Source: Thermotogota bacterium (GTDB taxonomy: Bacteria; Thermotogota; Thermotogae; Petrotogales; Kosmotogaceae). From it: a DNA stretch of 14,603 nucleotides. Of the stretch, positions 999 to 14,539 are shown piece by piece (position 1 is the first letter of the stretch; each line of letters opens with the position of its first letter). The notes beneath the pieces were generated by a model, which was not told the DNA's origin, made no database searches, and saw nothing but the letters and a program-made list of their open reading frames with translations. Both the position numbers and the translations under genes were made by a program. The stretch lies in the NCBI GenBank assembly GCA_034660555.1, contig JAYEJL010000064.1, positions 1-14,603 of the forward strand, in the 5' to 3' direction.

Positions 999-1026
999 TT
1001 GACTTTGTATTAAAATTTTATGTAAT
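999..1026 (+). promoter_or_regulatory. putative sigma70-type promoter for the defence operon
   Basis: TTGACT (999-1004), a 16-nt spacer, then TGTAAT (1021-1026); alternatively TAATAT at 1023-1028 with an 18-nt spacer. An A-tract lies upstream, and the HTH start codon is ~45 nt downstream. Confidence 0.55.
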
Positions 1027-1028
1027 AT

Positions 1029-1057
1029 TTCATAGAATGTTATATGAAGGATTCTAT
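1029..1057. promoter_or_regulatory. overlapping inverted repeats, candidate operator for the XRE regulator
   Basis: ATAGAAT (1032-1038) N12 ATTCTAT (1051-1057), and TTCATA (1029-1034) N8 TATGAA (1043-1048). Both lie between the -10 box and the SD (GAGG 1061-1064). Confidence 0.4.
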
Positions 1058-1071
1058 CACGAGGCAATGCC

Positions 1072-1293
1072 ATGAAAAATAAAAATGTATCAAATTTGAT
1101 TAAAGAACTGAGGAATAAGCTCGGCCTTACACAGGAACAGTTTGCCCAGAAGGTTGGAGTGACATTTTCGACCATTAACAATTGGGAAAAAGGAACACGG
1201 ACCCCTCACCCATTTCTTTTTCAGAGACTTCTGGAAATGGCAAAGGAAGCAGGTTTGAAGAATATTGAGAATATTAAGAGAACTAAGAAGTAG
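1072..1293 (+). CDS. XRE/Cro-CI family helix-turn-helix transcriptional regulator (controller-protein-like)
   Basis: IKELRNKLGLTQEQFAQKVGVTFSTINNWEKGTRTP is a textbook HTH_3 signature. 73 aa, SD GAGG at 1061-1064, first gene of the operon. Confidence 0.92.
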   Translation: MKNKNVSNLIKELRNKLGLTQEQFAQKVGVTFSTINNWEKGTRTPHPFLFQRLLEMAKEAGLKNIENIKRTKK

Positions 1294-1303
1294 GCAGATA
1301 ACT

Positions 1304-4300
1304 ATGATGGATAATACTAAGAAAAGAAATCTTGTGGAACTAAGTTTATCCAGGAATTATCGGAATGAATATTTATTTTCAGAGATTTATTTGCAAGATA
1401 TTACCCAGCGCCCTGTAACTGACGAGAATCTTAGAGCCTCTTTCCAGACTATTAATGAATGGAAAGAATATGCTGATAAAACTTCTCTTGAGAAATGGAC
1501 CACCACTTATATTGAACCAGCGTTAGATACCTTGGGTTTTGGTCATCATCGAGAGAAAGAAAATACGCCATATGTTTTGTTCCTTTTTCCAGATGTTGAT
1601 AGAAGTAAACCTATGTCTATTTGTTATGTAGTGCCACCAGGTGAAGATATAAATTGCACCATAAAAGGAAAACATTGGGCTGAGAAGATCATACGAAATT
1701 TGAGGAAATATGATTTTGAGTGGGGTATCCTTACTGATGGAGTTTATTGGCGAATATATCATACAAAAGAGCCAACTCCCTACGAGACCTATGTGGAGGT
1801 TAATTTAGAGTCAATTCTCAACAATCAGGATTATCCAGTCTTTCAAATATTTTATTTCTTTTTCTGCCCGGATAATTTCATTAAGAAGAAAAATGGAGAA
1901 TGTAGATTTGATAATTACAAAGAAGAATCTGTAAAGACCACAGAATATATTGAAAATAATCTGAGTGATGCAATTGAACGTGTGGAAGAAGGTGGTGGTG
2001 TTCTCCAAACCCTATGTCTCGGCTACCTCGATTCTTTAGGAAAGGAAACATATTGCGAAGAAGAACGCCAGCTTATTTATCGTGGCGCTATTTTATACCT
2101 CTTTCGTCTACTTTTTCTATTCTATTCCACAGCGCGTGATTTACTAAAAAGTAAAAGTATCGAAGCATTTAAAAGTATCGTTTTGGATTCGTTCCGATTC
2201 CATAATAAAGGTGGATCGCAAAGCAGGTCTTATAACCTTTGGTTTCGTCTTCAGGGTCTCTTTGCTGAAATAGATTTGACTTATGATGGAGGACTTTTTA
2301 ATCCTTACGAAGAAAGCGTTTTTATAAAATTTATAGAACAGAACAAAATTGCTGATCCATTTATTTCAGAAGTTGTATTTGGGCTGGCTTATTATCAGAG
2401 GTCAAAAGGAAATTTTGTCCCCATAAAATACCGTGACCTTTCAGTTCGTCATTTGGGCAGTCTATATGAAGGATTGTTAGAGCATAAATTATTTATTGCA
2501 GATGAAATTACAGTTGTTCGTAAATCAGGTACTAAGGTCAGGTTTATTCCACAATCCCAAGCAGGAAGAATAAGCCGTTCTGAAACCATCATTGAAAAAG
2601 GCAAAGTTTATTTTTCAGAAGATGCAAAAGAAAGAAAACTTACAGGTAGTTATTATACACCTGAAGATGTTGTTGAATACATTGTTAAGAATACCGTTGA
2701 TGCTTTATTAGGAGAAAAGAAGCAAGAATTAATGGCAGATATTGAACCCGTTATCAATGAGATAAATTCTGCAATCAATGAATCTGAACGAAGGCGTCTT
2801 GAGTTATTTATTGATGATAAGATTGTTAAATTTATTGAAGAAAAAATTCTTTCCTTTTCAGTACTTGACCCTACTATGGGAAGTGGTCATTTTCTTGTTA
2901 ATGCAACTAATCATATAGCAAACTTTATAGTGGAACTATTAAATGAGTTCCCAGAATACAATCCTAAAATAAGTTCTGACCCAGCACTCTGGAGGCGTCG
3001 GGTTGTAGAAGATTGCATATATGGTGTTGACCTTAACCCGCTTGCAGTAGAATTGGCAAAATTGTGTCTTTGGATAACGACAGCATTTAAAGAAAAGCCT
3101 CTTTCTTTCCTTAACCATCATCTTAAACAGGGGAATGCCCTTGTCGGTGTTCGGATTTCAGATCTGGAAGAGCATCTTAAAAAGTCCAAAAAAGGATATT
3201 ATGATTTATTTATGCAATCTTATCTCAATTCAATCAGACAGGCTTCTGAAGGATATAAGAAAAAATTAAGCAAACTAACTGAAGCAAGGGAAGATATTGA
3301 AGAAAAGAAAGAAACACTTACTGAGGTAGACGAAGATTTACTTCCTTATAAGCACCTATGTAATCTCTTTACTCATTATCTACTTGGTGAACTGAAAGAA
3401 AGTGACCTTTTGTTTCAAATTAAAAACTGGAAGAAACCAAACCTGCCTGCGCAGGCAGGTAAGACAGAAAAAATCCCCGCTTCTCTAAGTAGTAAAAATT
3501 TCTTTCACTGGGACCTTGAATTTCCTGATGTATTCTATGGTGATAATCCTGGATTTGATTGTGTGATTGGTAATCCGCCGTATGTAGATGTGCCTCAAAC
3601 AGAATATATGGAAAAATATAGTTGTAACAGACTGAAAACAAAAGATTGTAGAAACTTATATGCGTTTCTTACTGAGAAAGGAGTGTCCTATCTTAAAAAG
3701 GAAGGTAAATTTGGATATATTATTCCAATGTCAATAATCTGTTCAAATAGAATGGATAGTTTAAGAAACTTACTTTTAGAGAATGGTAAAACTTATTTTT
3801 CAAACTTCGCAGAGAGACCCGATAAAATTTTCAAGGATGCTGAACAAAAGGTGACAATAATTCTGCACTCAAAAAACAGTGATAAAGCTTATTTCACGAC
3901 TTCTTATTTAAAATGGAATGCAATTGATCGGAAATATTTATTCGATTCTATTGAATATATTGATATAGAAAATGAATATTTTATCATGAATAGGATACCC
4001 AAAATTGGAACTAAGATAGAAAAAAATATTTTAGGAAAGCTCGTTGCAAAAGAAAATTTAGGCAAGATTTTAATAAATGGGGTAAATAGAAATAGAGTAT
4101 TCTACAGAACCTCGGGAGGGAGATATTTTAATGTAATTACTACGTTTGAAACTTATTCCTCCAAGGAAGATTTCATTTGCATTGAAGAGTCAATTTCAAA
4201 TGACGTGGTTTGTGCTATTCTCAACAGTAATTTATTTTATTGGTATTATGTTGTTTACTCGAATTGTAGAGATTTTTATGAAGAGGAAATAGAGAATTTT

Positions 4301-4573
4301 AGAATTAGTATCGATGACATGAATAAGTCAACTAAGCAAACGCTGATTGAACTAAATAGAGAATTGATGGATGATGCAATTAATAATTCTAAGGAACAAT
4401 TAATCAAATATTCTAGAGGAACAAAGAGAGTTAGAGTATTTTATTTAAGAGAATCCAAAAAAATAATAGATAGAATAGACCATGCATTAGCAAAACATTA
4501 TGATTTTAATGCGGAAGAATTAAACTTTATTATTCATTACGATGAAAAATATAGGTTAGGAAAAGACTCATGA
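1304..4573 (+). CDS. Eco57I/Type IIG-like N6-adenine DNA methyltransferase (PglX-like role) with degenerate N-terminal nuclease domain and C-terminal target-recognition domain
   Basis: Gamma-class motif order: RKLTGSYYTPEDVV (motif X), VLDPTMGSGHFL (motif I, ~2861-2896), IYGVDLNPLAVELAKLCLW, FHWDLEFPDVF, FDCVIGNPPY (motif IV, NPPY 3572-3583), then the TRD. The N-terminal WGILTDGVYWRIY is typical of IIG proteins. ATG 1304 (or 1307), just after the HTH stop, is preferred over TTG 1265. Confidence 0.9.
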   Translation: MMDNTKKRNLVELSLSRNYRNEYLFSEIYLQDITQRPVTDENLRASFQTINEWKEYADKTSLEKWTTTYIEPALDTLGFGHHREKENTPYVLFLFPDVDRSKPMSICYVVPPGEDINCTIKGKHWAEKIIRNLRKYDFEWGILTDGVYWRIYHTKEPTPYETYVEVNLESILNNQDYPVFQIFYFFFCPDNFIKKKNGECRFDNYKEESVKTTEYIENNLSDAIERVEEGGGVLQTLCLGYLDSLGKETYCEEERQLIYRGAILYLFRLLFLFYSTARDLLKSKSIEAFKSIVLDSFRFHNKGGSQSRSYNLWFRLQGLFAEIDLTYDGGLFNPYEESVFIKFIEQNKIADPFISEVVFGLAYYQRSKGNFVPIKYRDLSVRHLGSLYEGLLEHKLFIADEITVVRKSGTKVRFIPQSQAGRISRSETIIEKGKVYFSEDAKERKLTGSYYTPEDVVEYIVKNTVDALLGEKKQELMADIEPVINEINSAINESERRRLELFIDDKIVKFIEEKILSFSVLDPTMGSGHFLVNATNHIANFIVELLNEFPEYNPKISSDPALWRRRVVEDCIYGVDLNPLAVELAKLCLWITTAFKEKPLSFLNHHLKQGNALVGVRISDLEEHLKKSKKGYYDLFMQSYLNSIRQASEGYKKKLSKLTEAREDIEEKKETLTEVDEDLLPYKHLCNLFTHYLLGELKESDLLFQIKNWKKPNLPAQAGKTEKIPASLSSKNFFHWDLEFPDVFYGDNPGFDCVIGNPPYVDVPQTEYMEKYSCNRLKTKDCRNLYAFLTEKGVSYLKKEGKFGYIIPMSIICSNRMDSLRNLLLENGKTYFSNFAERPDKIFKDAEQKVTIILHSKNSDKAYFTTSYLKWNAIDRKYLFDSIEYIDIENEYFIMNRIPKIGTKIEKNILGKLVAKENLGKILINGVNRNRVFYRTSGGRYFNVITTFETYSSKEDFICIEESISNDVVCAILNSNLFYWYYVVYSNCRDFYEEEIENFRISIDDMNKSTKQTLIELNRELMDDAINNSKEQLIKYSRGTKRVRVFYLRESKKIIDRIDHALAKHYDFNAEELNFIIHYDEKYRLGKDS
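3441..3460. repeat. perfect 20-bp GC-rich palindrome inside the methyltransferase CDS (REP-like)
   Basis: ACCTGCCTGCGCAGGCAGGT equals its own reverse complement. It is 70% GC in an AT-rich gene and is translated in frame as (N)LPAQAG. Confidence 0.8.
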
Positions 4574-4613
4574 AGCACCACAAGGGTTAAAATTTAGTAT
4601 ATTGAGGTGACTA

Positions 4614-5216
4614 GTGAAAGAACTTTCAAAAGAGGAACTGATAAATCTTTATAAAGCTTCGCCAGAAGACACGCTAAAAAAACTTGGCATTTACAGTAAG
4701 GCAAAAGAAGCATATGAAGAAAAGCAGAAACTGGAAAAGTTAAAAAAAGAACGTATTGAAAGGGCAAAGGGGCTGGTAAAGGAAGCTCAAGAACTATTGA
4801 ATATATACAGGCTCGACCTTAGAGTTACTGCAGGAGGAATGCGAGTTGTGGATAAAGATGGGCAAGGTATTTCTGGTAACTCGCAAAAAAAGAGGAAAAC
4901 GGGTAGTAGACTTTCAGGGGGTGTTAGAACCGTAGCAACTCGATATAGAACTCCTATTTTACAAGCTTTAATTGAATTAAATGGGCGGGAAAAATCAGGT
5001 ATAGTGCTGGACCGAGTTTACCAGCAGATGAAGGATATTTTTGTACCAGTAGATTTAGAAAAAATCCCTGCGGGCGAACTACGATGGAGGAATGCTGCTC
5101 AATGGGAAAGAGTTAAAATGGTGGAAGAAGGTTTGCTTTGTAATGATTCGCCCCGTGGTATTTGGGAAATCACAGAAAAAGGGCGAAAATATTTAGAGGA
5201 ACATAATTATGAGTAA
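4614..5216 (+). CDS. N-terminal coiled coil + basic linker + C-terminal Mrr_N-type winged-helix protein (no nuclease domain)
   Basis: GTG start with SD GAGGTG (4604-4609). The C-terminal YRTPILQALIELNG...RWRNAAQWERVKMVEEGLL..DSPRGIWEITEKGRKYL matches the Mrr N-terminal domain pattern. The N-terminus is E/K-rich and helical. Confidence 0.85.
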   Translation: MKELSKEELINLYKASPEDTLKKLGIYSKAKEAYEEKQKLEKLKKERIERAKGLVKEAQELLNIYRLDLRVTAGGMRVVDKDGQGISGNSQKKRKTGSRLSGGVRTVATRYRTPILQALIELNGREKSGIVLDRVYQQMKDIFVPVDLEKIPAGELRWRNAAQWERVKMVEEGLLCNDSPRGIWEITEKGRKYLEEHNYE

Positions 5217-5276
5217 ATTTTATAATAAAGCTATAGATTATAATAATACTTATAACTTTGGAGCAGAAATAGAGTA

Positions 5277-6086
5277 ATGAAATTTCAATTATCAAACGGA
5301 TACTACTTGCGTTTTAAACATCTATCACATCTACTGCATTATGTGGTGGGTAAGCCGAAGGTTTCTCGTTTTCTCAAGAAAGAGTTGTCATCGGCTCTTG
5401 GTATGTCCCCTCGTATGATTGAGAATCTAATAAGCTACGGAGTAGCATTGGGGCTGTTAACCCGAGGAAATTGTAAGCCAACCGAGCTTGGGATTTTGAT
5501 AGACAAAAAGGATACTTTTTTTGATAAAACCGAAACTCTATGGTTCCTTCATTATACAATAACATCTGATAGAAAATATGTGGTCTGGAACAGATTAGCT
5601 AATCGTGTATTTCCCAAGGAAAGTAAGGTGTTTACAGAAGTAGCCAGAACATATTTCAGTGACCTAAATGGTCATTTCTCAGAGAAAAGTATGAAGAAGC
5701 ACCTAATTAAAGAGATTAATGCATTTTTTAATGCTTATACTGAACAGAATTTTAGTAAATTAAATTATATTTTAAAGATATCAAGTCATTCTTATCGAAT
5801 TAACAATAATCCAGAAGTTCCAGACTTATGTATTCTTGCGTCCTGCTATATGTATAGAGACCGATATATGGAAGGGGCAACCGGATTAGAGATTGAGCAT
5901 TTAGCAAAAGAAGAGAACTCGCCTGGCCGGGTTTTTCATATTACTGAACATCAACTTAGATTAGTCCTGGAACGGTTGAATGCACAGCGACAAATATCTA
6001 TAGAATCAAGAGCCAATTTGGATCAGATTCGTTTTGATTCTAATAAGAACTGGTTAGATATTGTTAAGCAATTTTATGAGGGATGA
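5277..6086 (+). CDS. DUF4007 family protein (SspB-like / BREX type 4 BrxP-associated domain)
   Basis: Family-like motifs LGMSPRMIENL..YGVALGLL, PTELGILI..KDTFFDKTETLWFLHY, EINAFFNAY, ENSPGRVFHI and SRANLDQI. 269 aa, located upstream of a BrxC-like ATPase. Confidence 0.8.
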   Translation: MKFQLSNGYYLRFKHLSHLLHYVVGKPKVSRFLKKELSSALGMSPRMIENLISYGVALGLLTRGNCKPTELGILIDKKDTFFDKTETLWFLHYTITSDRKYVVWNRLANRVFPKESKVFTEVARTYFSDLNGHFSEKSMKKHLIKEINAFFNAYTEQNFSKLNYILKISSHSYRINNNPEVPDLCILASCYMYRDRYMEGATGLEIEHLAKEENSPGRVFHITEHQLRLVLERLNAQRQISIESRANLDQIRFDSNKNWLDIVKQFYEG

Positions 6087-6087
6087 C

Positions 6088-6597
6088 ATGAGTTCATATA
6101 GCTTGGTAAACCTAAAAAAATTTGTAAATAGTCTTTCTGGTGAACGACACAGGACATTTATTGTGCATAATGGTCCTGCAACTGGAAAGTCCAAATATGC
6201 CAGACTATTCGCTGAAAAGAGTAAAGGCAAATATTTGGATTTGCTTGAAAGATTTGGGAAAGATGCAGAATTAAAAAAGAAAATAGATGTTTTTGATTTT
6301 CGGGATCTTGAGAACTTGCTCGTGGAAGAAGCCAAGGATACAAATCTTCTTATTTTGGATAATGTAGAGTTTTTGCTAAACACCTGGGAAGAAGATGGTT
6401 ATAATTTGCTTTTTCACTTACTTGCTAAGAATTGGAATTCTTTTCAATCTTCATATAGAGCAGTATTAGGTGTTTTTCTTATAACTAATCGGAAGATATT
6501 AGATTTAGAATTAAACACGAGCAAAGGAGAGACGAGAGTCTTTCATTTAAGTGAATTAGAATCCTTAGAAGGAGGCTCTGAGTATGAGCAAGATTAA
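6088..6597 (+). CDS. small BrxF-like P-loop NTPase (degenerate Walker motifs)
   Basis: FIVHNGPATGKS (Walker A-like) and LLILDNVEFLL (BrxF-like Walker B). About 169 aa from ATG 6088, which has SD GAGGG at 6078-6082 and lies 1 nt after the DUF4007 stop. Its end overlaps the brxC start by 14 nt. Confidence 0.65.
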   Translation: MSSYSLVNLKKFVNSLSGERHRTFIVHNGPATGKSKYARLFAEKSKGKYLDLLERFGKDAELKKKIDVFDFRDLENLLVEEAKDTNLLILDNVEFLLNTWEEDGYNLLFHLLAKNWNSFQSSYRAVLGVFLITNRKILDLELNTSKGETRVFHLSELESLEGGSEYEQD

Positions 6598-9500
6598 TGA
6601 AATCATAACCATAAAAAGCGGGATGGCTTCTTATGTATACCTTTGTAAGGAGCTTTTTGACACGGATGATTGCAGCCAGAGAATGATGAGCTATAAGCCT
6701 ATAAAATCTCACAGAGATGCCTTTGAGCGTGTTTCCAAAGCCCTTGACCCAAGAGATCGCCGTTGTTACTTATTAACTGGAAGTTATGGAACCGGTAAAT
6801 CACATCTTTGTCTTATGCTTGCGAATTACTTCATGCATCAATCAGATGTGCATGAACTTGAAGAGTTTTTTGCATCTTATAGCGAAGAAGATGAAAGTCG
6901 TGCAAAGGTTCTTTCACAAAAAAGGGCTAAAGGACGATATTTAGTAGCTGTACCTGAGTTTGCCAGTAGAGGAGACTTTGAGGAATTAGTGCTCAGGTCT
7001 ATTGATGAAGCTCTTAAACGGGAAGAATTTGAAGAAGACCTGGATTCGCATTATCAAGAGACCATGAGGAGGATCAATGCCTGGAGGCAAAAAGGAAAAT
7101 CTGGAGAAACAAGGGTAAACTTTTACGATCTATTCTGTGAAGAGCTAAAAGACAGATTCTCCGGCTGGACTGTAGATAAGCTTACCAAAGGTCTTAAAGA
7201 ATATAGCCACGAAGCTCTGCAAGTTTTTCGTCAAATACACAAAAATATTACTGCCAATGAATTTGCATATAGCAAAGATAACCTTGTGGATATCATAACA
7301 GATATTAATAGCACCAAGAAGTTTCAAGAGCGGTTTAAGGGTATTGTAATAATATATGACGAGTTTGGATACCTGCTCCAGGAAGGTCGTCTTGGTTTAA
7401 ATACTTTTCATGCATTCTCTCAATTATGCACTCACGGAAATAAAGACTGGAAAGGTAATCAACTGATCTTTATAGGAACCGCCCATAAGTCATTTATTAG
7501 CTACGCAAAAACGACCACGGCGGTTGACCTTTCCACTTTATCTGACCGGATTAATGAAGTAGCACTTCAGACCGAAGGTATGGAGGACATAATTGCCGCT
7601 ATCGTCATTCCTCAAAAAAGACATAGACTGTGGCAAGAGCATGTAGCCAAATATGGAAGCCTTTTCAATCAATTTACTAAAGACTGTAAGAGACTAAATA
7701 TTTTTAATTGGCTTCCAGCTCCGCGACTGCGTGAGAAGATTATCGAAGACATCTATCCGATGCACCCGATAGCAACATACTGTTTGCTAATTTTAGCGAA
7801 GGAAATAGGTTCTGCCAACAGATCAGTATTTACTTTTTTCTCTGGTGAGTTTGGTAGAGAAGAGGGCTCTTGCCCTTGGTTTATTCAAAATACTGACATA
7901 ATTGATAGTAAAGGGCGACTTAATCTTTATACCACTGATTATCTTTTTAACTACTTCCAAAATTCCCTCGTTTCTACAAATAAAGAGCTTCGTGAAATGA
8001 CGAGGGAGCATATTAAAAATTATGAAGCAACACTCAGAGAGCTCAATAAATATGTTAGTCAAAGAAAACAGGGAAAGCTATTTGATGAAAAAGACGAGCT
8101 CATGGAGCGTACATTGAAAGTTATGCTTATACATGAAATTGTATCTGTGAACAATAGTAAAGAGAATCTTCTTTTTTCTCTGAATTTTAGCACTGCTGAA
8201 CAGAAAAAACAACTTGAGACCAGGCTTGATCTGCTTACTAAAGCTAAAGTGCTCTATTACAACAGTATTAATGATGTCTATGAATTTAAGCGAGGTGACA
8301 TAGTAGATATTGATAGAATGATAGGTGAGTTCAAATCAGATGAAGAAAACTATCCTAAGGATATAGTAGGTAACCTAAATAAATTTGCCCCCTTAACTCG
8401 TGAATTAACTTATATAGAGGCAAAAAACTATAACCAGAACCATAATGAAGATAAGAGGCTTCTTTGCACCTTCTGCCTACCGAATGATCTATCTTCAACC
8501 AGGAAGATTGACGGTAAGGAAATGTCGTTTTTTGAATCATTAGAATATGAAATGCAAACACAAACTGATTTTAAGAAGAATTATGAAGGTATAGCGGTAT
8601 ATGTGATTTGTGAAAATAGAGAAAGTATTGATAAAGCACGTGCTTTACTTGTTAAAAATCCATCCGAAAGAATCGTGATCGCTATTCCAAAAGAACCCAT
8701 CAATGTAACCGAAATTATTTTTAATATATTAGCAATGGAATACATAAAAAAATCTGAGAAATTTGAGGAGTTTTCAACGCAAGATAGAGCTGTTTTAAAT
8801 GAAAAAGACAAACAATATTTGGAACAACTAAAAAAAGAAAGAAATAAATATTTATCACCAGAGCATATTGAATGGTATGGTAAAGCCGGGAAAACATTTC
8901 AAGTAGACACAAAAAAAGACTACGATATTGCTAATAAAGTAATTGAACCACTCTATTATCGTTATTCAAATAAACTCCAACATGATGAATTTAACAAGAT
9001 TCATGGCATTAAGTTTGATCGGACTAGAAATCAATCGCTAAAAGAGGCAGTTGAGAAAGTCCTTAATCGTTATGAATCTATAATCATTGATACAGAATAT
9101 GCACATAATCGCGGAGAAATCCGTTATCTCCGTCGATGTCTTCTTAATCCAGGGGCACTGAGACAGACAGATAAGAAGGGTTCTAAACTATATTGCGAAC
9201 CAGAAAGAGATTTATCAAAGTTCAGTCAAAACTTACCTGCTTTAGCTGATATGATTAAGGAAGTTGAGAAACTTGGAGAAGAAAAGCGGTTAAATATAAA
9301 TACATTTTTGAAAAAATATGCCCAAGATTATGGTCAAGGACTACTCGCCCTATCTTTGATGTTTGCTCTGGTACGTCGTTATTTTGGAGACAACCTAAGG
9401 ATAAAGCGTGATGAAACTGCTATTGGTGATATGCTGCTTATACAGTTTGAAGACCTCTATGACCTAATAACTGGTGAGTATCCAAAAGCATACTTAGAAC

Positions 9501-10675
9501 ATAGGGAAATTGCCGAGTCTGAGCGTAATTTTATCAACAAGTTGTATAACATCTTCTCACAGAAAAAGTTGGGCGCCGGTGAAACCGCTTCTGTAATCCA
9601 AGTTCATAGGTTAATGAAAGAATGGTGGATTGGTCTTTCTCCAGTAGTAAAAATTAAAGACGCCTATGAATCCGCAGCTGGGAATATAGAAAAATTTATT
9701 GAAGCGTTTGAAAAGATCGAGAGTAGAAACGAACATGGGTTTATCCTCGGAGATCTTCAAACTATCTATGATTTTGAACATGATGAGTTAATTACAGACG
9801 AAAGGGCAGTTCAAATATTAGAGAGGACAAGAAAAGACAAGAATACAATAGAGTCCTGCGAGAAAAAGATAGAAAATGAGATACTAAGTGGAGTCTGCCA
9901 GATTTTTAATATAGGGGGTTCTACTTATGATGACATTCAGGCTGGAGTTAGTAAATGGTTTAATGCACTCGATGGCTATCAACGGGATCTAATGGCTGAT
10001 TATCACACAAACGAGAGCAAACATTTGATATTGCACCTGGGTTCTATAATTAATGTAGAAAAGACCTTTTTTGAAGATTTACCATCATCTGCTGGAGTTG
10101 GACTTGGCAAAGTTAGAGATTGGATAGCTAATAAGACAAATGAATATTTAGAGAAAATCCGCACAGGTAAAAAGGTTATCGAAGAAAATAAATTTAGGGT
10201 CGAAAGTGCCGAGGTTGTTTTAAGCGGAGATTATAAAAGACCAAAAGACGATTCTATTCTATATACTGGAACGCTCAATGTGTTATTGAAGCACAAAGAC
10301 CCAGGAATGAAAATTTTCATTACTGCCGATGGTTCTGATCCTACTTATTCTCACAGAAAGGAAGCTGTTGGTCAATTTAAATTGGAAGTTAAAGACAACA
10401 TTACGCTGAAGTTTGTTAGTCAAGATAAGGATGGCAATTTCAGTCGTGTTACATCTCTCTCTATTACTAATGAGGACAAGAAATATGAAATTACACTTCC
10501 AAAACAACTAATGATTGGAGAACCACAGGTGCAATTTCACTTTCCAAAGAAATTGAATGGGCTAATTGTTACCATTAAATCTTTATTAAGATGTGCTCTT
10601 GAAAAAGAAATAATTGATAAGAAAAAATTGCGACAAGAAATAGAACGAATACTTAATGAAATTTTGGGGGAATAA
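6584..10675 (+). CDS. brxC: BREX BrxC/PglY-like large P-loop ATPase (DUF6079/SspC-like) with C-terminal Fn3-associated/chitobiase-like domain
   Basis: Walker A LLTGSYGTGKSHL (GSYGTGKS 6779-6802), Walker B IVIIYDEFG and the IYPMHP motif typical of BrxC/SspC ATPases. 1363 aa, SD GGAGG at 6571-6575, directly upstream of pglZ. C-terminal IFITADGSDP motif. Confidence 0.85.
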   Translation: MSKINEIITIKSGMASYVYLCKELFDTDDCSQRMMSYKPIKSHRDAFERVSKALDPRDRRCYLLTGSYGTGKSHLCLMLANYFMHQSDVHELEEFFASYSEEDESRAKVLSQKRAKGRYLVAVPEFASRGDFEELVLRSIDEALKREEFEEDLDSHYQETMRRINAWRQKGKSGETRVNFYDLFCEELKDRFSGWTVDKLTKGLKEYSHEALQVFRQIHKNITANEFAYSKDNLVDIITDINSTKKFQERFKGIVIIYDEFGYLLQEGRLGLNTFHAFSQLCTHGNKDWKGNQLIFIGTAHKSFISYAKTTTAVDLSTLSDRINEVALQTEGMEDIIAAIVIPQKRHRLWQEHVAKYGSLFNQFTKDCKRLNIFNWLPAPRLREKIIEDIYPMHPIATYCLLILAKEIGSANRSVFTFFSGEFGREEGSCPWFIQNTDIIDSKGRLNLYTTDYLFNYFQNSLVSTNKELREMTREHIKNYEATLRELNKYVSQRKQGKLFDEKDELMERTLKVMLIHEIVSVNNSKENLLFSLNFSTAEQKKQLETRLDLLTKAKVLYYNSINDVYEFKRGDIVDIDRMIGEFKSDEENYPKDIVGNLNKFAPLTRELTYIEAKNYNQNHNEDKRLLCTFCLPNDLSSTRKIDGKEMSFFESLEYEMQTQTDFKKNYEGIAVYVICENRESIDKARALLVKNPSERIVIAIPKEPINVTEIIFNILAMEYIKKSEKFEEFSTQDRAVLNEKDKQYLEQLKKERNKYLSPEHIEWYGKAGKTFQVDTKKDYDIANKVIEPLYYRYSNKLQHDEFNKIHGIKFDRTRNQSLKEAVEKVLNRYESIIIDTEYAHNRGEIRYLRRCLLNPGALRQTDKKGSKLYCEPERDLSKFSQNLPALADMIKEVEKLGEEKRLNINTFLKKYAQDYGQGLLALSLMFALVRRYFGDNLRIKRDETAIGDMLLIQFEDLYDLITGEYPKAYLEHREIAESERNFINKLYNIFSQKKLGAGETASVIQVHRLMKEWWIGLSPVVKIKDAYESAAGNIEKFIEAFEKIESRNEHGFILGDLQTIYDFEHDELITDERAVQILERTRKDKNTIESCEKKIENEILSGVCQIFNIGGSTYDDIQAGVSKWFNALDGYQRDLMADYHTNESKHLILHLGSIINVEKTFFEDLPSSAGVGLGKVRDWIANKTNEYLEKIRTGKKVIEENKFRVESAEVVLSGDYKRPKDDSILYTGTLNVLLKHKDPGMKIFITADGSDPTYSHRKEAVGQFKLEVKDNITLKFVSQDKDGNFSRVTSLSITNEDKKYEITLPKQLMIGEPQVQFHFPKKLNGLIVTIKSLLRCALEKEIIDKKKLRQEIERILNEILGE

Positions 10676-10676
10676 G

Positions 10677-13040
10677 GTGGCGATAGTATCTATTATTAAT
10701 GACAGCTTTGAGATTGGCAGAAAAGAAGACGCGCTGGTTGTCCATGGGATATCCGATTATGTAGATACTTACCTCCAGATTGTAGATTCCATATATAATA
10801 AAGTTGGCTTAAATGTTTTAGTCAGAGATTCTACCTGTTTTAAATGGCTTTCCCGACTTAAGGATCAATATGGAGCCAATTACATTGAAATCTTGGAAAA
10901 TTCTCCGCGTGAAGCAATTAAGCACCAATGGCATCTTGAACATTTACCTGATGATATAACAGATAGGGCTATACTCGAAGCAAGTCTACTCGATTTAAGA
11001 ATAGCTCCTAAAGAGGGAGAAAAATTTGAGAACATTATATTGGAGAACTTTTACAGCAGTCTTTTAACTTACCCTGAATTACCTATTGGCAGATTAGCAG
11101 AACTTTTAGAGGATTTAGTAACTGGTAGATGGAAAGACCATAGGAAAATACCACTTATTTTTAGACAATATGAAAAACGGTTAGACGGGTGGAGGGAAAA
11201 AAGAAAAAAGAAGGAGTTTGAAGAGGTAATTGAAGGTCTTAGGAATAATCCTAAGCTCCTTCAACAGCAGTTGATGAATTATAAAGTAGTAAAGAATTAT
11301 CCAAGTGAACTTGGAGAGCGAATTTTAGGTGAAAAGTATGATGTTTTCCGCAGGTTGCCTTTGGACTTGAACGATCTCAAGATAGAGAGGTCAAGTGTAG
11401 AAAAAGCAATTTATGAAATTGAAATTTTTCTTCGCAACGAAGTAGAAGTTAAGACATGCGAGGATCTTGAGATACTTCTGACCATTTTAAGTGGAGAATT
11501 ATCTATTGAATTTGATATAATTAGAAAGGCAATTTATGATCTGGAGAATGAAGTCACAAAAGACTTAATTGAAAAAGTAAAGGATAAATTTTCTGCGATT
11601 TCTAACCAAATATCAACAGATATAAAAGAACTTGATTTACTTATACACCCTATAAAACCTTCTAAACCTCAGGATTCTTGGAATGCAGAAGAATGGTTAA
11701 ACTGGGCAATTAATGAATATTTACCATACCAGTTTTGGCTTGAGGAACGAAATGAGTATGACAAGGAAATTGCTTCTTTCTCTGAAAGGTTCGCCGATTG
11801 GTTCTATAAAAACTTTATTACGCTAAGAACTTCATTTCCGAGAGTTCTGCACAATGTAGTACCCCACATTTGCCACGAAATCCGTGCTAGTGAAGGGATA
11901 AGCGTTTTTGTCGTGATAGATAATTTCAATTTCAAATACATGCGCAACCTTGAATCTTTACTTAAGCAAAGAGGGTTTTTTTGTAAAGAGCCTCAAGGTT
12001 ATTTCTCTATGATACCTACCGAAACCGAGGTTTGTAAAAAGTGTCTACTGTCTGGTGAACCTGAAAGAAATTCTATTGGAAATAAAAGTTATAAACAAAT
12101 CATAGAGGATGATTGGTATAGATTCATAGGGAATAAGAAGTTTGTATATTTATCCAATCTGGGTGCTTTAAATAAAATCAAAAAAGCAGAGCATGATGTA
12201 TATTTCCTTAACTATTGCAATATTGATGAGTTATTACATAAAGATGAAGATGAATTGGGGAAACCTCATCGGGAAGAGGTATATCATAGGATCAAAACTC
12301 TTGTGGACTTGGTAATCAGTTTTGCCAGGCGTTTAGGGATTGAACACAACCTTTCAATTTACATCTGCTCAGATCATGGTTCTACTAAAATTCAAGCAGA
12401 GACAACCAATTATATTGACAGAAAATACTATGATGCTAAAAGCGAGGACAAACATCATCGCTTCGTTGCGGTTTCAGAGAGGCAAATGCAAAACTTGCCC
12501 TCGCACGTAGAAAACAATTGTTATGTAATTCGCAAAAAAGAATATGGATTGTTGGAAAACTATCTTATAGCGAAAGGTTATGGGAGGTTTGTAAAGACTA
12601 CCGGGAAATTTTATGTTCATGGAGGATTAAGTCCTGAAGAAGTGGTCGTTCCATTTGCTGTTTTTAATAAAATAATGGCTGAGCCTAAGCAAATTCTAGT
12701 CTATTTAAGCCAGAATACTTTTCGTTATTCAGTGAAATCTACTATCAAGTTAAATATCGGAAACACAAACGAATATGAAATAGTTAATATTGTTATTGAC
12801 ATACGAAATAGCAATATAGAATGCCAGTCCCCTAAAGTTATGCGGGTAGAACCCAAAGGCAGAGTTCAGGTAGAAATACCAGCACGATTTAAGAAAAGCC
12901 CGAACAAGAAGGAAACAAATTATCTTTTAATGCGAATTCGTTATCAATTCTTAGGCAAGGATTATATTCAGGATGTCGAACCTGCCATCGTCATGAAATC
13001 GATGGTTCAGGAAAAAACAGAGTTAGAAGAACTTTTTTAA
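10677..13040 (+). CDS. pglZ: BREX PglZ alkaline-phosphatase-superfamily phosphodiesterase
   Basis: PglZ motifs VFVVIDNF, FSMIPTETEVCK, IDELLH, IYICSDHG (SDHG 12369-12380) and YVHGGLSPEEVVVP. GTG 10677 has SD GGGGGA and lies 1 nt after the brxC stop (ATG 10656 is the alternative start). The C-terminal ~115 aa are beta-rich. Confidence 0.92.
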   Translation: MAIVSIINDSFEIGRKEDALVVHGISDYVDTYLQIVDSIYNKVGLNVLVRDSTCFKWLSRLKDQYGANYIEILENSPREAIKHQWHLEHLPDDITDRAILEASLLDLRIAPKEGEKFENIILENFYSSLLTYPELPIGRLAELLEDLVTGRWKDHRKIPLIFRQYEKRLDGWREKRKKKEFEEVIEGLRNNPKLLQQQLMNYKVVKNYPSELGERILGEKYDVFRRLPLDLNDLKIERSSVEKAIYEIEIFLRNEVEVKTCEDLEILLTILSGELSIEFDIIRKAIYDLENEVTKDLIEKVKDKFSAISNQISTDIKELDLLIHPIKPSKPQDSWNAEEWLNWAINEYLPYQFWLEERNEYDKEIASFSERFADWFYKNFITLRTSFPRVLHNVVPHICHEIRASEGISVFVVIDNFNFKYMRNLESLLKQRGFFCKEPQGYFSMIPTETEVCKKCLLSGEPERNSIGNKSYKQIIEDDWYRFIGNKKFVYLSNLGALNKIKKAEHDVYFLNYCNIDELLHKDEDELGKPHREEVYHRIKTLVDLVISFARRLGIEHNLSIYICSDHGSTKIQAETTNYIDRKYYDAKSEDKHHRFVAVSERQMQNLPSHVENNCYVIRKKEYGLLENYLIAKGYGRFVKTTGKFYVHGGLSPEEVVVPFAVFNKIMAEPKQILVYLSQNTFRYSVKSTIKLNIGNTNEYEIVNIVIDIRNSNIECQSPKVMRVEPKGRVQVEIPARFKKSPNKKETNYLLMRIRYQFLGKDYIQDVEPAIVMKSMVQEKTELEELF

Positions 13041-13055
13041 TTAGGAGGGAAAGCT

Positions 13056-14474
13056 ATGCTTCCTTTTGAACAAAAGGCACAAGATTATTATGGAGAGATT
13101 GTTATAAATAAGGGGCTCTTTCGCCAAGTGGGATTTGGAGGTAGAGCAATCCCAACCTATGTAGGTGAATGGATACTTTCCCATTACATGCAAGACCAAG
13201 AAGAACTGACTAATGAGATTCGTAGCAATATAGCCAAGTTTGTAGCGAATTACCTTCCCAGCAAAGGCCAGAAGGAAGAATGGAAAAATCGTTTATTAAA
13301 CCAAGAACCTGTAAACCTTCTCGACCATTATACAGTGTCGGTTAATCTAAAAACGGGGCAGAGACACTTGAATATCCCGTTTTTTGATATGAAAGATGCT
13401 TATATTACAGAACATATTGTAGAAGAGAACGAGCTTCTTCTTACCAGTGGTGTCTGGGGAGTTGGTGAACTGTTTTATGTGCCACCTGATACTGAAAAAA
13501 GTAAGGGACAAGTTTGGATGCGTGACTTTAAACCATTTCAAATAGCAAAAGTTGATTTGGATTACCTTATTGAATGCCGACAATATTTTACTATCTCTGA
13601 GTGGATTGATTTATTAGTATCTAGCATGAGTTTTAGTCCCATCGTTAATAGCGAACGACAAAAAATGCTACTTTTGACTCGAATGCTTCCCTTGATAGAA
13701 CCACGACTTAATCTTGTGGAATTAGCTCCAAAAGGTACTGGTAAATCATTTGTTTTTGACCACCTTTCCAGGTATGCAAGAGTTATTGGCGGTGGCAAAG
13801 TCTCGCCAGCGGTACTATTCCATAATAATCAGTCCCATGAACCTGGTCTTGTAACTAGGTATGATGCAGTGGTACTTGACGAGGTTCAGAGTGTCCATGG
13901 TGACAGCACTGGCGAACTTATTGCTATGCTAAAGGTTTATCTGGAATCCGGGAAATTTAGTCGTGGAAAAACAGAAGCTACTTCTGAAGCAGGATTTGTT
14001 ATGTTAGCTAACATAACCTTAGACGAAAAGCATATGCCTATTTACATTGATAAGGGTATCTTTAAAGAATTTCCTAATTTTCTTCAAGAAACAGCATTTA
14101 TTGATAGGTTACATGGTGTAATTCCAGGATGGTATTTGCCCCGTGTAACCCAGGATACTCCATCTATATACTTGGGATTCAAAGGGGACTTATTTGCTGA
14201 AGTAATGCACAATTTAAGAAAGGATTTAAAATATACAGACTATGTAAATATGAACATGCATCTTGTAGGTTGTGATGATTTACGAGATAAGAAAGCTATT
14301 ACCAGAACTGCCACAGCATATCTTAAGTTATTTTTCCCTCATCTAAAGGTGACCAATGAGGAGTTCGTAAAATATTGTGTTCAACCAGCTATTGAACTTA
14401 GACAACAAATCCGAGATGAGTTATGGAAAATGGATAAAGAATATAAGAAGGTAAGTATAGGAATTGAAGATTAG
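13056..14474 (+). CDS. brxL: BREX BrxL, short form (MCM-like AAA+ ATPase lacking the C-terminal Lon protease domain)
   Basis: AIPTYVGEWIL N-terminal motif, EWIDLLVSSM, NLVELAPKGTGKS (Walker A), VVLDEVQ (Walker B), YLESGKFSRG and AFIDRLHGVIPGW. 472 aa, SD AGGAGG at 13043-13048. Confidence 0.9.
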   Translation: MLPFEQKAQDYYGEIVINKGLFRQVGFGGRAIPTYVGEWILSHYMQDQEELTNEIRSNIAKFVANYLPSKGQKEEWKNRLLNQEPVNLLDHYTVSVNLKTGQRHLNIPFFDMKDAYITEHIVEENELLLTSGVWGVGELFYVPPDTEKSKGQVWMRDFKPFQIAKVDLDYLIECRQYFTISEWIDLLVSSMSFSPIVNSERQKMLLLTRMLPLIEPRLNLVELAPKGTGKSFVFDHLSRYARVIGGGKVSPAVLFHNNQSHEPGLVTRYDAVVLDEVQSVHGDSTGELIAMLKVYLESGKFSRGKTEATSEAGFVMLANITLDEKHMPIYIDKGIFKEFPNFLQETAFIDRLHGVIPGWYLPRVTQDTPSIYLGFKGDLFAEVMHNLRKDLKYTDYVNMNMHLVGCDDLRDKKAITRTATAYLKLFFPHLKVTNEEFVKYCVQPAIELRQQIRDELWKMDKEYKKVSIGIED

Positions 14475-14501
14475 TAAACATAATTTGAATGTAGTGAGAC
14501 C

Positions 14502-14539
14502 AATAAACTACCCCGCCGCTTGCGGCGGGGTAGTTTATT
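14502..14539. terminator. 18-bp perfect inverted repeat downstream of brxL; probable (bidirectional) terminator or REP-like element
   Basis: AATAAACTACCCCGCCGC-TT-GCGGCGGGGTAGTTTATT, starting 27 nt after the brxL stop. GC-rich core with TTTATT tails readable on both strands. Confidence 0.75.

Follow-up and report, generated by a model that had tools for sequence, protein, structure and literature searches.

A candidate methylation-based BREX lineage with a DUF4007/SspB-like protein, an SspC-like ATPase and a small P-loop protein in a Thermotogota contig

BREX (bacteriophage exclusion) systems are among the commonest anti-phage systems, and the mechanism by which they stop phages is still unknown. 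Goldfarb reportedly defined them in 2015 by a PglZ-domain protein encoded next to a P-loop ATPase of the BrxC/PglY type. In this paper, we describe a stretch of 14,603 nucleotides that makes up one entire contig (JAYEJL010000064.1) of a genome from a Thermotogota bacterium and that is called the window throughout; the genome comprises 2.1 Mb in 188 contigs and is 95.5% complete. The window probably carries a complete system from a separate branch of the BREX superfamily, one that relies on methylation. The conserved cassette of this lineage consists of a PglX-like methyltransferase, a DUF4007/SspB-like protein, a small P-loop protein, an SspC-like BrxC, PglZ and a short BrxL.

The BREX superfamily is delimited by the presence of PglZ next to a BrxC/PglY-type ATPase (PMC12205998), and the survey of Rakesh and Krishnan (NAR 2026, PMC12839542) lists six BREX types, three helicase-based "BR" systems and a HerA-centred system. 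Type 4 BREX, which writes phosphorothioate, has the gene order brxP-brxC-pglZ-brxL (PMC12914056, PMC12839542), type 1 the order brxA-brxB-brxC-pglX-pglZ-brxL and type 3 the order brxF-brxC-pglXI-brxHII-pglZ-brxA. Related proteins occur in the phosphorothioate system SspABCD(-SspE), for which it has been proposed that SspB prepares the DNA for sulfur insertion by nicking it (PMC12707154). Islands of the composition sspBCDB-brxCZL and dndBCD-brxCZL exist, and a Fischerella cluster combines dndBCDE with brxL, brxZ, sspB and a methyltransferase (Yuan et al. 2026, Nat Commun, PMC12914056). DUF4007/SspB proteins and SspC-type ATPases are tied to phosphorothioate writing in the literature; in the window they stand beside a PglX-like methyltransferase, with no sulfur enzymes.

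Recurrence and phylogeny of the cassette

A protein search with the PglZ of the window returned 40 relatives, nearly all of them metagenomic. Scanning genome contigs with this single sequence gave no relative; a scan with an alignment of 30 PglZ sequences then found relatives. With the alignment, the best 80 of 151 relatives in metagenomes were taken as loci, and 42 relatives in 41 loci were obtained from species-representative genomes. Two Bacteroidales loci (L122 and L123; L and G numbers are our handles for loci and genomes) were excluded, as they showed 23-24% identity over about 220 residues in open reading frames (ORFs) of 417-478 aa, with no other family gene near. Family hidden Markov models were built from 19-22 diverse members, and all ORFs of at least 60 aa in the loci were searched with them.

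The family PglZ proteins in the 119 fetched loci form 101 clusters at 95% PglZ identity. DUF4007, the small ORF, BrxC, PglZ and BrxL were found together in 59 of the 119 loci, the remainder being cut by contig ends, and in 109 of 118 loci, no more than 200 nt lie between PglZ and the BrxL that follows it. The initial annotation had proposed looking for the same gene order in other genomes, and the conserved cassette does recur in these loci, which come from at least nine phyla. Since the same arrangement recurs in other loci, it is not a product of chance. A search of 1.84 billion cluster representatives with the family profile gave 266 matches at E ≤ 1e-30, 621 at ≤ 1e-10 and 1193 at ≤ 0.001 (the matched representatives being clustered at 50% identity).

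By record title, the carriers are mostly Chloroflexota, with further copies in Abditibacteriota, Bacillota, Actinomycetota, Poribacteria, Chthonomonadales, Melioribacteraceae, Deltaproteobacteria and Brocadiia. Three of them are cultured, namely Abditibacteriota IAD-21, Clostridium homopropionicum DSM 5847 and Pontibacillus salicampi NCAIM B.02529. The IAD-21 copy is located on the complete plasmid pIAD-21, where all six genes are annotated as "hypothetical protein". Within the phylum of the window, the cassette was found in one of 151 genomes, which is the source genome itself, and in none of the four other genomes of its genus. The other two PglZ matches in this phylum are type 3 PglZ proteins with about 25% identity. 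Such a sporadic distribution is as expected of mobile defence genes. Type 3 BREX, with a PglZ above the curated cut-off, is present in five of the 151 genomes (G453, G454, G459, G416 and G539).

Linkage of the core genes to the methyltransferase was assessed in eligible loci, i.e. those that had DUF4007 with at least 3 kb upstream of it, or a family methyltransferase of at least 100 bits on the same strand. A methyltransferase was found in 42 of 51 eligible loci. In 25 of these it directly precedes DUF4007 (gap at most 150 nt), in 14 it lies upstream with inserted genes in between, and in three it is located between BrxC and PglZ. The latter three (L046, L049 and L050) belong to one subclade, L049 and L050 being near-duplicates, and their order corresponds to the type 1 order A-B-C-X-Z-L. 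In three further eligible loci (L064 and the duplicates L021 and L093), only an incomplete ORF with a TaqI_C domain is seen, at the border of the stretch. The remaining six have no methyltransferase in the stretch, and their upstream region is filled by SIR2 with HerA, by SMC-like/AAA_21 ATPases or by AbiE; in one of them (L110), a methyltransferase homologue of 1208 aa (486 bits) is encoded immediately upstream on that contig, in the same orientation.

In a tree with the methyltransferases of types 1, 3 and 5, those of 19 loci form one clade (support 99 in the Shimodaira-Hasegawa-like approximate likelihood ratio test, SH-aLRT), and their subclades match the BrxC, PglZ and BrxL subclades of the same loci. 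Shared subclades argue for long co-inheritance and not for chance adjacency. The initial proposal of a methyltransferase-driven core had made usual linkage in relatives a point on which it could fail, and both the 42 of 51 eligible loci and the matching subclades bear the linkage out.

References for the trees of the core proteins were two type 4 loci from Bacteroidota (L136 and L137, the only two matches in 401 genomes), type 3 loci from the phylum of the window (e.g. L148), and types 1, 5 and 6 from annotated plasmids (type 1: L127, L153, L154). L136 and L137 encode BrxP with phosphoadenosine phosphosulfate (PAPS) reductase and iron-sulfur motifs, BrxC, PglZ and a BrxL of 485 aa. The type 2 PglZ model had no match in 301 genomes, and type 2 is therefore missing from the trees. 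In the PglZ tree, the family forms one clade (98), which shares a side with types 3 and 4; types 1, 5 and 6 are set off by a split with a support of 99. In the BrxC tree, the family clade (100) is joined to type 4 with a support of 99 but falls beside it, not inside it, and types 1, 3, 5 and 6 are placed elsewhere. When the Ssp-like ATPase of a Treponema plasmid was added, it joined the family BrxC (86) within the type 4 group (98) on a long branch. The BrxL tree shows the family (99), type 4 (100) and type 1 (100) as three separate groups, which give no information on sister relationships. The core had originally been called type 4-like; this applies to BrxC, DUF4007 and the short BrxL, but PglZ is not specifically type 4-like. 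Judged by these sequence phylogenies, the cassette is an old monophyletic lineage and not a one-off hybrid.

The Treponema ATPase comes from plasmid pTS1 of Treponema saccharophilum (L159, 9159-19327), which has an unusual Ssp-like layout of its own: DUF4007, an SspC-like ATPase of 1201 aa, a class V aminotransferase (cysteine desulfurase-like), a DEAD/DEAH helicase, an ATPase and a phospholipase D-family protein, with no PAPS reductase annotated.

Component proteins and the search for phosphorothioation genes

Catalytic residues were compared in 28-32 sequences from types 1, 3, 4, 5 and 6 and from the family, including the window. At the Walker A (G66...GKS73) and Walker B (D259, E260) positions of BrxC, no more than one of the 31 sequences, which cover all types, deviates. 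For PglZ, at most one of 32 sequences differs at D422, T457, D524, D573, H574 or H655, and T457 aligns with a threonine present in every type 1, 3 and 4 reference. In the type 1 BREX of E. fergusonii, the PglZ substitution T538A cuts defence about 1000-fold and leaves methylation unaffected (PMC12205998), and T457 probably corresponds to this T538. BrxL keeps its Walker A (GTGKS, 227-231) and Walker B (D275, E276) motifs in the types compared. In the window, a PglZ-domain protein adjoins a large BrxC-type P-loop ATPase, and both fall inside the BREX protein trees.

On PADLOC models, the SspC match of BrxC covers residues 200-589 only, on a model that comes with no curated cut-off, and the type 4 BrxC model PDLC02480 gives 39.4 bits. 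BrxL consists of the N-terminal DNA-binding domain BrxL_N and the MCM-like AAA+ domain BrxL_ATPase; a Lon-like domain at the C-terminus is missing. Among PADLOC models, PDLC02505 ranks first for it (423.7 bits), as it does for type 4 BrxL. BrxL is short in 88 of 99 complete copies and long in the other 11 (at least 600 aa vs about 475 aa). Loci with a long BrxL or a rearranged order are L046 (1330-14358), L049 and L050 (696-14490), L090, L111, L113, L081, L015, L112, L116 and L117. A BrxL homologue of 34% identity occurs in a non-BREX context on a Meiothermus taiwanensis plasmid (L125, 6543-14620), where it follows vWA, tubulin-like and hypothetical genes and adjoins a DUF1156/Swt1-HEPN block, with no PglZ or BrxC annotated.

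All curated type-specific NCBIfam models stayed below their cut-offs for the proteins of the window. For PglZ, the type 3 model NF033449 gave 61.4 bits (cut-off 250), the type 4 model NF033445 41.9 bits (cut-off 140) and the type 1 model TIGR02687 21.9 bits (cut-off 270.35); the type 1 PglX model NF033452 gave 67 bits for the methyltransferase (cut-off 500). The PADLOC model for type 4 PglZ (PDLC02550) did not match the window PglZ. On their own PADLOC models, true type 4 proteins score 758-2595 bits (BrxC 2595, PglZ 1233).

The methyltransferase (METHYLTRANSFERASE) has the S-adenosylmethionine motif I DPTMGSGHF at residues 535-543 (DPxMGSGHF in the family) and NPPY at 770-773, both invariant in 25 sequences. 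The cassette therefore contains a modification enzyme in the same cluster, as BREX systems do, in the form of a predicted N6-adenine methyltransferase with an NPPY motif. TaqI_C scores 23.5 bits on it, below the cut-off of 26.5. No match was found when the Protein Data Bank was searched with the methyltransferase sequence. Its whole-protein model (pLDDT, the predicted local distance difference test, 83.4; predicted template-modelling score 0.88) is closest to the BREX BrxX/PglX structures 9ewz and 8c45 from E. coli and Salmonella (E 3.7e-15 to 1e-13), with about 1080 aligned columns at a template-modelling score of about 0.4. CamA, DrdV, LlaBIII, BpuSI and MmeI rank behind them.

The N-terminal domain of the methyltransferase is nuclease-like and retains the motif WGxLTxGxxWR. 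Within residues 1-200, only L90, G135, W153, G159, W162 and R163 are invariant in 25 aligned sequences, which contain no conserved D...ExK set; the candidate aspartate varies. From this we infer that the domain is not an active PD-(D/E)xK nuclease. A type IIG/IIL (MmeI-like) enzyme was considered and rejected: the methyltransferase half fits (Eco57I, MmeI_Mtase), and the conserved PD-(D/E)xK catalytic residues are absent, as judged from the alignment. DISARM was rejected as well, since the window has no other Drm gene despite the DrmMI match of the methyltransferase (238 bits). MADS gave weak matches only (mad8 2.8e-8 on the N-terminus of BrxC, MAD2 6.2e-5 on the methyltransferase).

The ORFs of the window were scanned with Pfam, NCBIfam and PADLOC (2.0.0) models. 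The genes lie head to tail on the + strand, at the positions first assigned to them. In agreement with the reading of the letters alone, domains of the PAPS reductase, cysteine desulfurase, helicase, kinase, DUF1819 (BrxA) and DUF1788 (BrxB) families are lacking from all 11 scanned ORFs. A brxP- or sspD-type gene elsewhere could still have supplied phosphorothioation, and this concern was not borne out either near the relatives or in the source genome. The latter has a single PF01507 match of 26 bits, a generic PP-loop ATPase of 319 aa whose gene is flanked by those for an ornithine aminomutase subunit and a HAD phosphatase; for comparison, true type 4 BrxP reaches 106-107 bits on PF01507. Around the relatives, up to 10 kb were covered, less at contig ends, and the complete plasmid pIAD-21 was included. 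Among the unassigned ORFs beside or inside the related loci, PF01507 was found in 0 of 54 and 0 of 35 (0/89). A phmmer search with a type 4 BrxP as query matched none of the 6266 locus ORFs, although a single-sequence query could miss a distant DndC or SspD. SspA, SspD and SspE are absent from the window and from the scanned neighbouring ORFs of relatives. In five other carrier genomes, all PF01507 matches are on contigs other than that of the cassette; most are ORFs of 237-399 aa with 154-194 bits, likely housekeeping sulfate-assimilation enzymes, and one is a 23-bit match in an ORF of 527 aa.

The DUF4007 protein matches PADLOC SspB models with E values down to 2.2e-19, and the family profile matches solved SspB structures (6juf, 6lb9; E 9.3e-11). 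Compared with the C-terminus of Bacteroidota type 4 BrxP, the same profile reached an hhalign probability of 0.1%, which is not significant. The DUF4007 gene directly precedes the P-loop gene in relatives too.

The small P-loop family, with 21 aligned members, shows a Walker A motif GxxxxGKT/S and a Walker B motif hhhhD. Walker A is degenerate in four of the 21 (L046, L049, L081 and L120), with the rest of the protein kept, so ATP binding may be dispensable for its role. The model of the window protein (pLDDT 90.3) is a bare ASCE P-loop core of generic AAA+/RecA-like type. Its best VIA-align match is the D2 domain of NSF (Z 9.6, root-mean-square deviation 3.9, 146 residues), with many rows within 1 Z, and the top Foldseek matches are subunits of the origin recognition complex (ORC; E 7e-6). 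The profile matched the type 3 BrxF of L148, a protein of 162 aa encoded directly before brxC, with an hhalign probability of 67.5% (E 5e-5). The PADLOC BrxF model is the commonest family match (8 of 21 members, best E 2.4e-5), and in the language-model Atlas, clusters named "BREX-3 P-loop protein BrxF" score 0.95. Against BrxB (DUF1788), hhalign gave 1.2%, and the solved BrxB chain was not among the 50 VIA-align rows listed. The protein had been called BrxF-like from the beginning; the profile comparison, the PADLOC matches and the Atlas lend this name weak support, but the window copy itself was unmatched. We regard "BrxF-like" as a reasonable but weak designation. A complex prediction of the P-loop protein with BrxC 1-440 and PglZ 1-380 scored 0.74, compared to 0.73 for a control with BrxC replaced, and was used neither way.

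Gene layout, accessory genes and neighbouring features

The positions of the eight genes are given below as longest ORFs.

Table. Genes in the window
Feature	Position	Strand	Evidence
Xre-type helix-turn-helix (HTH) protein (73 aa)	1072..1293	+	HTH_3 56.8 bits
PglX-like N6-adenine DNA methyltransferase, gamma-class (longest ORF 1102 aa)	1265..4573	+	Eco57I 89.9, N6_Mtase 46.9, MmeI_Mtase 34.0 bits
Stand-alone Mrr_N winged-helix protein (200 aa)	4614..5216	+	Mrr_N 42.9 bits, residues 111-195
Free-standing DUF4007/SspB-like DNA-binding protein (269 aa)	5277..6086	+	PF13182 87.4 bits, cut-off 27
Small P-loop NTPase "X178", BrxF-like (178-aa ORF)	6061..6597	+	Predicted fold, family alignment
BrxC/SspC-like large P-loop ATPase (1363 aa), Ig-like C-terminal domain	6584..10675	+	PADLOC SspC 104.7 bits
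PglZ (794 aa), alkaline-phosphatase fold	10656..13040	+	PF08665 36 bits, cut-off 25
Short BrxL (472 aa)	13056..14474	+	TIGR02688 457.8 bits, cut-off 329.3

For three genes, the true start is probably downstream of the start of the longest ORF. The methyltransferase probably begins with the ATG at 1304, since there is a methionine at residues 14-15, residues 1-28 have a pLDDT below 50 and conservation in the family sets in at residue 34. The small P-loop gene probably starts at 6088 and pglZ at 10677, as the Atlas record of the former begins at residue 10 and the database record of the latter has 787 aa. Counted from these starts, the distances between genes are 1-60 nt where they do not overlap. 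The ORF of the small P-loop protein and the start of brxC overlap by 14 nt. Promoter-like matches (52 in the window vs 51.6 in shuffles) and terminator-like matches (6 vs 8.3) are at chance level, and no tRNA genes were found in the window.

Two of the eight genes had been counted as parts of the system, those for the HTH and Mrr_N proteins. Both are present in the window, but neither belongs to the conserved set, as the HTH gene was found only here and the Mrr_N gene essentially in the clade closest to the window. The HTH protein, a candidate local regulator, has weak PADLOC matches to the HTH_VI, RmrA, capH and Control_protein models, and a phmmer search found no homologue among the 6266 ORFs of related loci. 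The Mrr_N protein has a charged helical N-terminal half and a winged helix in its C-terminal half, without a catalytic domain, and its Atlas neighbours are Mrr_N-only proteins. Homologues occur in the same position in the eight closest loci, and a form of 299 aa follows brxL in L046. Both genes are probably local additions with regulatory or DNA-binding functions.

In related loci, genes are inserted at two hot spots, between methyltransferase and DUF4007 and between BrxC and PglZ. The cargo includes AbiE toxin-antitoxin pairs, Schlafen/AlbA_2-HATPase_c_4, GmrSD, SIR2 with HerA and SMC-like/AAA_21 ATPases, as well as CHAT, caspase, TPR, PIN, HepT and MNT/HEPN proteins. Examples are found in L008 (26-3767), L055 (709-7956), L057 (915-6019), L078 (2799-4423), L081 (3662-5377) and L098 (2613-4313), and there are large inserted ORFs without a Pfam match, e.g. 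in L056 (4932-7541), L058 (5373-9319) and L100 (2987-5296). This is in line with the varied accessory genes that the abstract of a recent survey (PMC12839542) describes for BREX loci in general. In one Chthonomonadales metagenome-assembled genome (L095, 3658-11026), a C-5 cytosine methylase (PF00145, 215.7 bits) stands in place of the adenine methyltransferase, DUF4007 and the P-loop gene, and is followed by a shortened BrxC of 564 aa; this may be a decayed or remodelled copy of the family.

Upstream of the operon, a + strand ORF of 92 aa (702-980) matches positions 6-82 of the 151 positions of the EcnA model (E 3.4e-13). It covers only the N-terminal half of staphylococcal-type thermonucleases, with SNase at 19.8 bits (below cut-off) and stop codons at 978 and beyond, and looks like a truncated nuclease gene.

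Interpretation and comparison with described systems

Based on the sequence comparisons, we regard a new, methylation-based subtype of BREX as the most likely identity of the cassette; it would combine an Ssp/type 4-like chassis with a BrxF-like adaptor. By analogy to type 1 BREX, the PglX-like methyltransferase would methylate one adenine in an asymmetric motif of the host DNA and thus mark it as self. On unmarked incoming DNA, recognition by the same methyltransferase, together with the DUF4007 protein and the BrxC ATPase, would lead to the assembly of a complex, in which the small P-loop protein could serve as an adaptor. PglZ, as a metal-dependent nuclease, and the BrxL ring ATPase would then stop phage replication. 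Since there is no sulfur chemistry here, the SspB-like protein would not be preparing DNA for sulfur insertion. Rakesh and Krishnan (PMC12839542) interpret DUF4007 as BrxA-like, a module of three HTH units that binds DNA, and this interpretation fits the sulfur-free context. A more far-reaching version, which we consider doubtful but possible, is that the SspB-like protein and the SspC-like ATPase constitute a modification-agnostic reader and loader chassis that has been coupled at least twice to different writers (sulfur for Ssp and type 4 BREX, methyl for the present family), and that the family would be a seventh BREX subtype bridging Ssp and types 3, 4 and 1.

Several points weigh against the assignment to a new methylation-based subtype. 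N6-methyladenine marking, its motif, the anti-phage activity and the roles of the subunits are all deduced by analogy. The second eligibility clause, under which a locus qualifies because a methyltransferase is seen, biases the linkage count upwards, and five of the 51 eligible loci (L008, L063, L073, L074 and L079) still have no methyltransferase within the fetched stretch. The trees are quick maximum-likelihood trees (LG+G4) with SH-aLRT support only; their references lack type 2 and represent type 4 by two near-identical loci and the Ssp-like ATPases by a single long-branched sequence, and the PglZ tree gives no order among the family, type 3 and type 4. The window copy of the small P-loop protein has an imperfect Walker A, in which the first glycine is replaced by asparagine, and no Pfam, NCBIfam or PADLOC match, including the PADLOC BrxF model. 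On sequence models, the methyltransferase scores higher for type IIG (240 bits) and DISARM DrmMI (238 bits) than for PglX (49-67 bits). Finally, as the contig ends 129 nt past the end of brxL and the genome is split into 188 contigs, the window copy may be adjoined by an additional gene.

These points bear on three other explanations. It is quite improbable that the cassette consists of independent neighbours, i.e. a type IIG/IIL-like restriction-modification enzyme or an orphan methyltransferase beside a BREX-like core without a modification gene of its own. The E values on PADLOC models agree with it (type IIG 1e-71, DrmMI 3.4e-71, PglX 6.8e-14), as does the statement of Yuan et al. (PMC12914056) that methyltransferases beside brx or phosphorothioation genes may act independently, and accessory defence genes separate the methyltransferase from the core in 14 loci. 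However, the methyltransferase accompanies the core in 42 of 51 eligible loci from many phyla, lies inside it in three, is monophyletic with the same subclades, lacks a conserved D...ExK set and has PglX as its closest solved architecture; a core without a marking gene would, moreover, have no known way to spare the host DNA. We give even less credence to a type 4- or Ssp-like phosphorothioate system whose brxP or sspD and cysteine desulfurase lie elsewhere or beyond the contig, with the methyltransferase as an extra. Apart from the present loci, DUF4007 and SspC-like ATPases are known only from systems that write phosphorothioate, according to the available descriptions (PMC12839542, PMC12914056), the ssp- and dnd-brxCZL islands exist, one of them (Fischerella) with a methyltransferase, and the contig ends right past brxL in a genome that is 95.5% complete. 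Against this explanation stand the single weak PF01507 match in a metabolic neighbourhood of the source genome, compared with the 106 bits of true BrxP, the zero counts near relatives with both Pfam and phmmer, including complete pIAD-21, and the finding that all PF01507 matches of five carrier genomes are ORFs of 237-527 aa on other contigs.

The third explanation is that the family is no separate subtype, being either a strongly diverged form of type 1 BREX or a group that supplementary tables or newer releases of defence finders already list by some other name; this is unlikely but deserves the most attention of the three. All six type 1 roles are filled, three loci have the type 1 order together with a long BrxL, and the fold of the methyltransferase is PglX-like. 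In addition, BrxA-like and BrxB-like proteins have been argued to be universal, with DUF4007 as BrxA-like, and 51 of 457 "type 4" taxa are reported to lack PAPS reductase (PMC12839542). Yet PglZ and BrxC stand apart from types 1, 5 and 6 at an SH-aLRT of 99, DUF1819 and DUF1788 are absent, the P-loop protein reaches 1.2% with BrxB, and the type 1 NCBIfam models remain far below their cut-offs. The main text of the survey (PMC12839542) calls the methyltransferase "entirely absent" from type 4. A seventh BREX type was not found in the full-text literature searched. The publications found to mention DUF4007 do not describe the arrangement, as far as the 2026 survey (PMC12839542) can be judged by its text apart from the supplementary tables. 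The suggestion of the initial annotation that this is an undescribed subtype therefore stands as a candidate: no PADLOC or NCBIfam type model fits, and the literature searched, the supplementary tables of the survey aside, catalogues no such subtype.

If the assignment to a methylation-based subtype is correct, the marking module of BREX would be interchangeable, and the nicking role of SspB in sulfur insertion would not be the sole job of the DUF4007/SspB family. The rules of defence finders would miss a whole lineage, as PADLOC 2.0.0 gives only weak matches for BrxC and PglZ. Should the more far-reaching chassis version hold, the cassette would offer a sulfur-free setting in which to learn what SspB- and BrxA-type proteins and BrxF- and BrxB-type adaptors do. 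The three cultured carriers make the cassette directly testable.

Among related arrangements, two were compared and set aside: the DUF499/Hma "BREX-related" systems, which need a helicase and lack PglZ and BrxL, and the HerA/FtsK "BRC" system with DUF4007 and PglZ, which requires HerA, GNAT and TGT genes. With SspABCD(-SspE), the family shares the likeness to SspB and the SspC-like ATPase. SspA, SspD and SspE are missing here, and the only modification enzyme is the methyltransferase, as opposed to phosphorothioation in Ssp. The ssp- and dnd-brx islands carry a DUF4007-brxC-pglZ-brxL arm like the core of the family, a likeness drawn from their description only.

In type 3 BREX, as in the family, a small P-loop gene of about 160 aa lies directly before brxC, and type 3 models score best on the PglZ of the window (NCBIfam 61.4 bits, PADLOC PDLC02558 51.1 bits). 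However, type 3 has the helicase BrxHII, whereas the family has BrxL and no helicase; type 3 BrxC lies across the main split from the family, and PglXI is far from the family methyltransferase. Type 1 BREX has six matching roles and shares BrxL, the architecture of the PglX-like methyltransferase and the catalytic residues with the family, and its gene order recurs in L046, L049 and L050. Its BrxA (DUF1819) and BrxB (DUF1788) are replaced in the family by DUF4007 and the BrxF-like P-loop protein. The PglZ and BrxC of types 1, 5 and 6 are separated from those of the family by the 99-supported split, and only the fold of the methyltransferase is nearest to PglX.

Type 4 BREX shares a DUF4007-type module, the brxC-pglZ-brxL order and the BrxC clade with the family, and a short BrxL without a Lon domain is common to both (PMC12839542). 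Type 4 has a PAPS reductase and iron-sulfur region. The family has neither, and instead contains a co-diverging methyltransferase and a small P-loop gene. While DUF4007 is a part of BrxP in type 4, the DUF4007 protein of the family is encoded by a gene of its own, and its detectable likeness is to SspB rather than to the C-terminus of BrxP.

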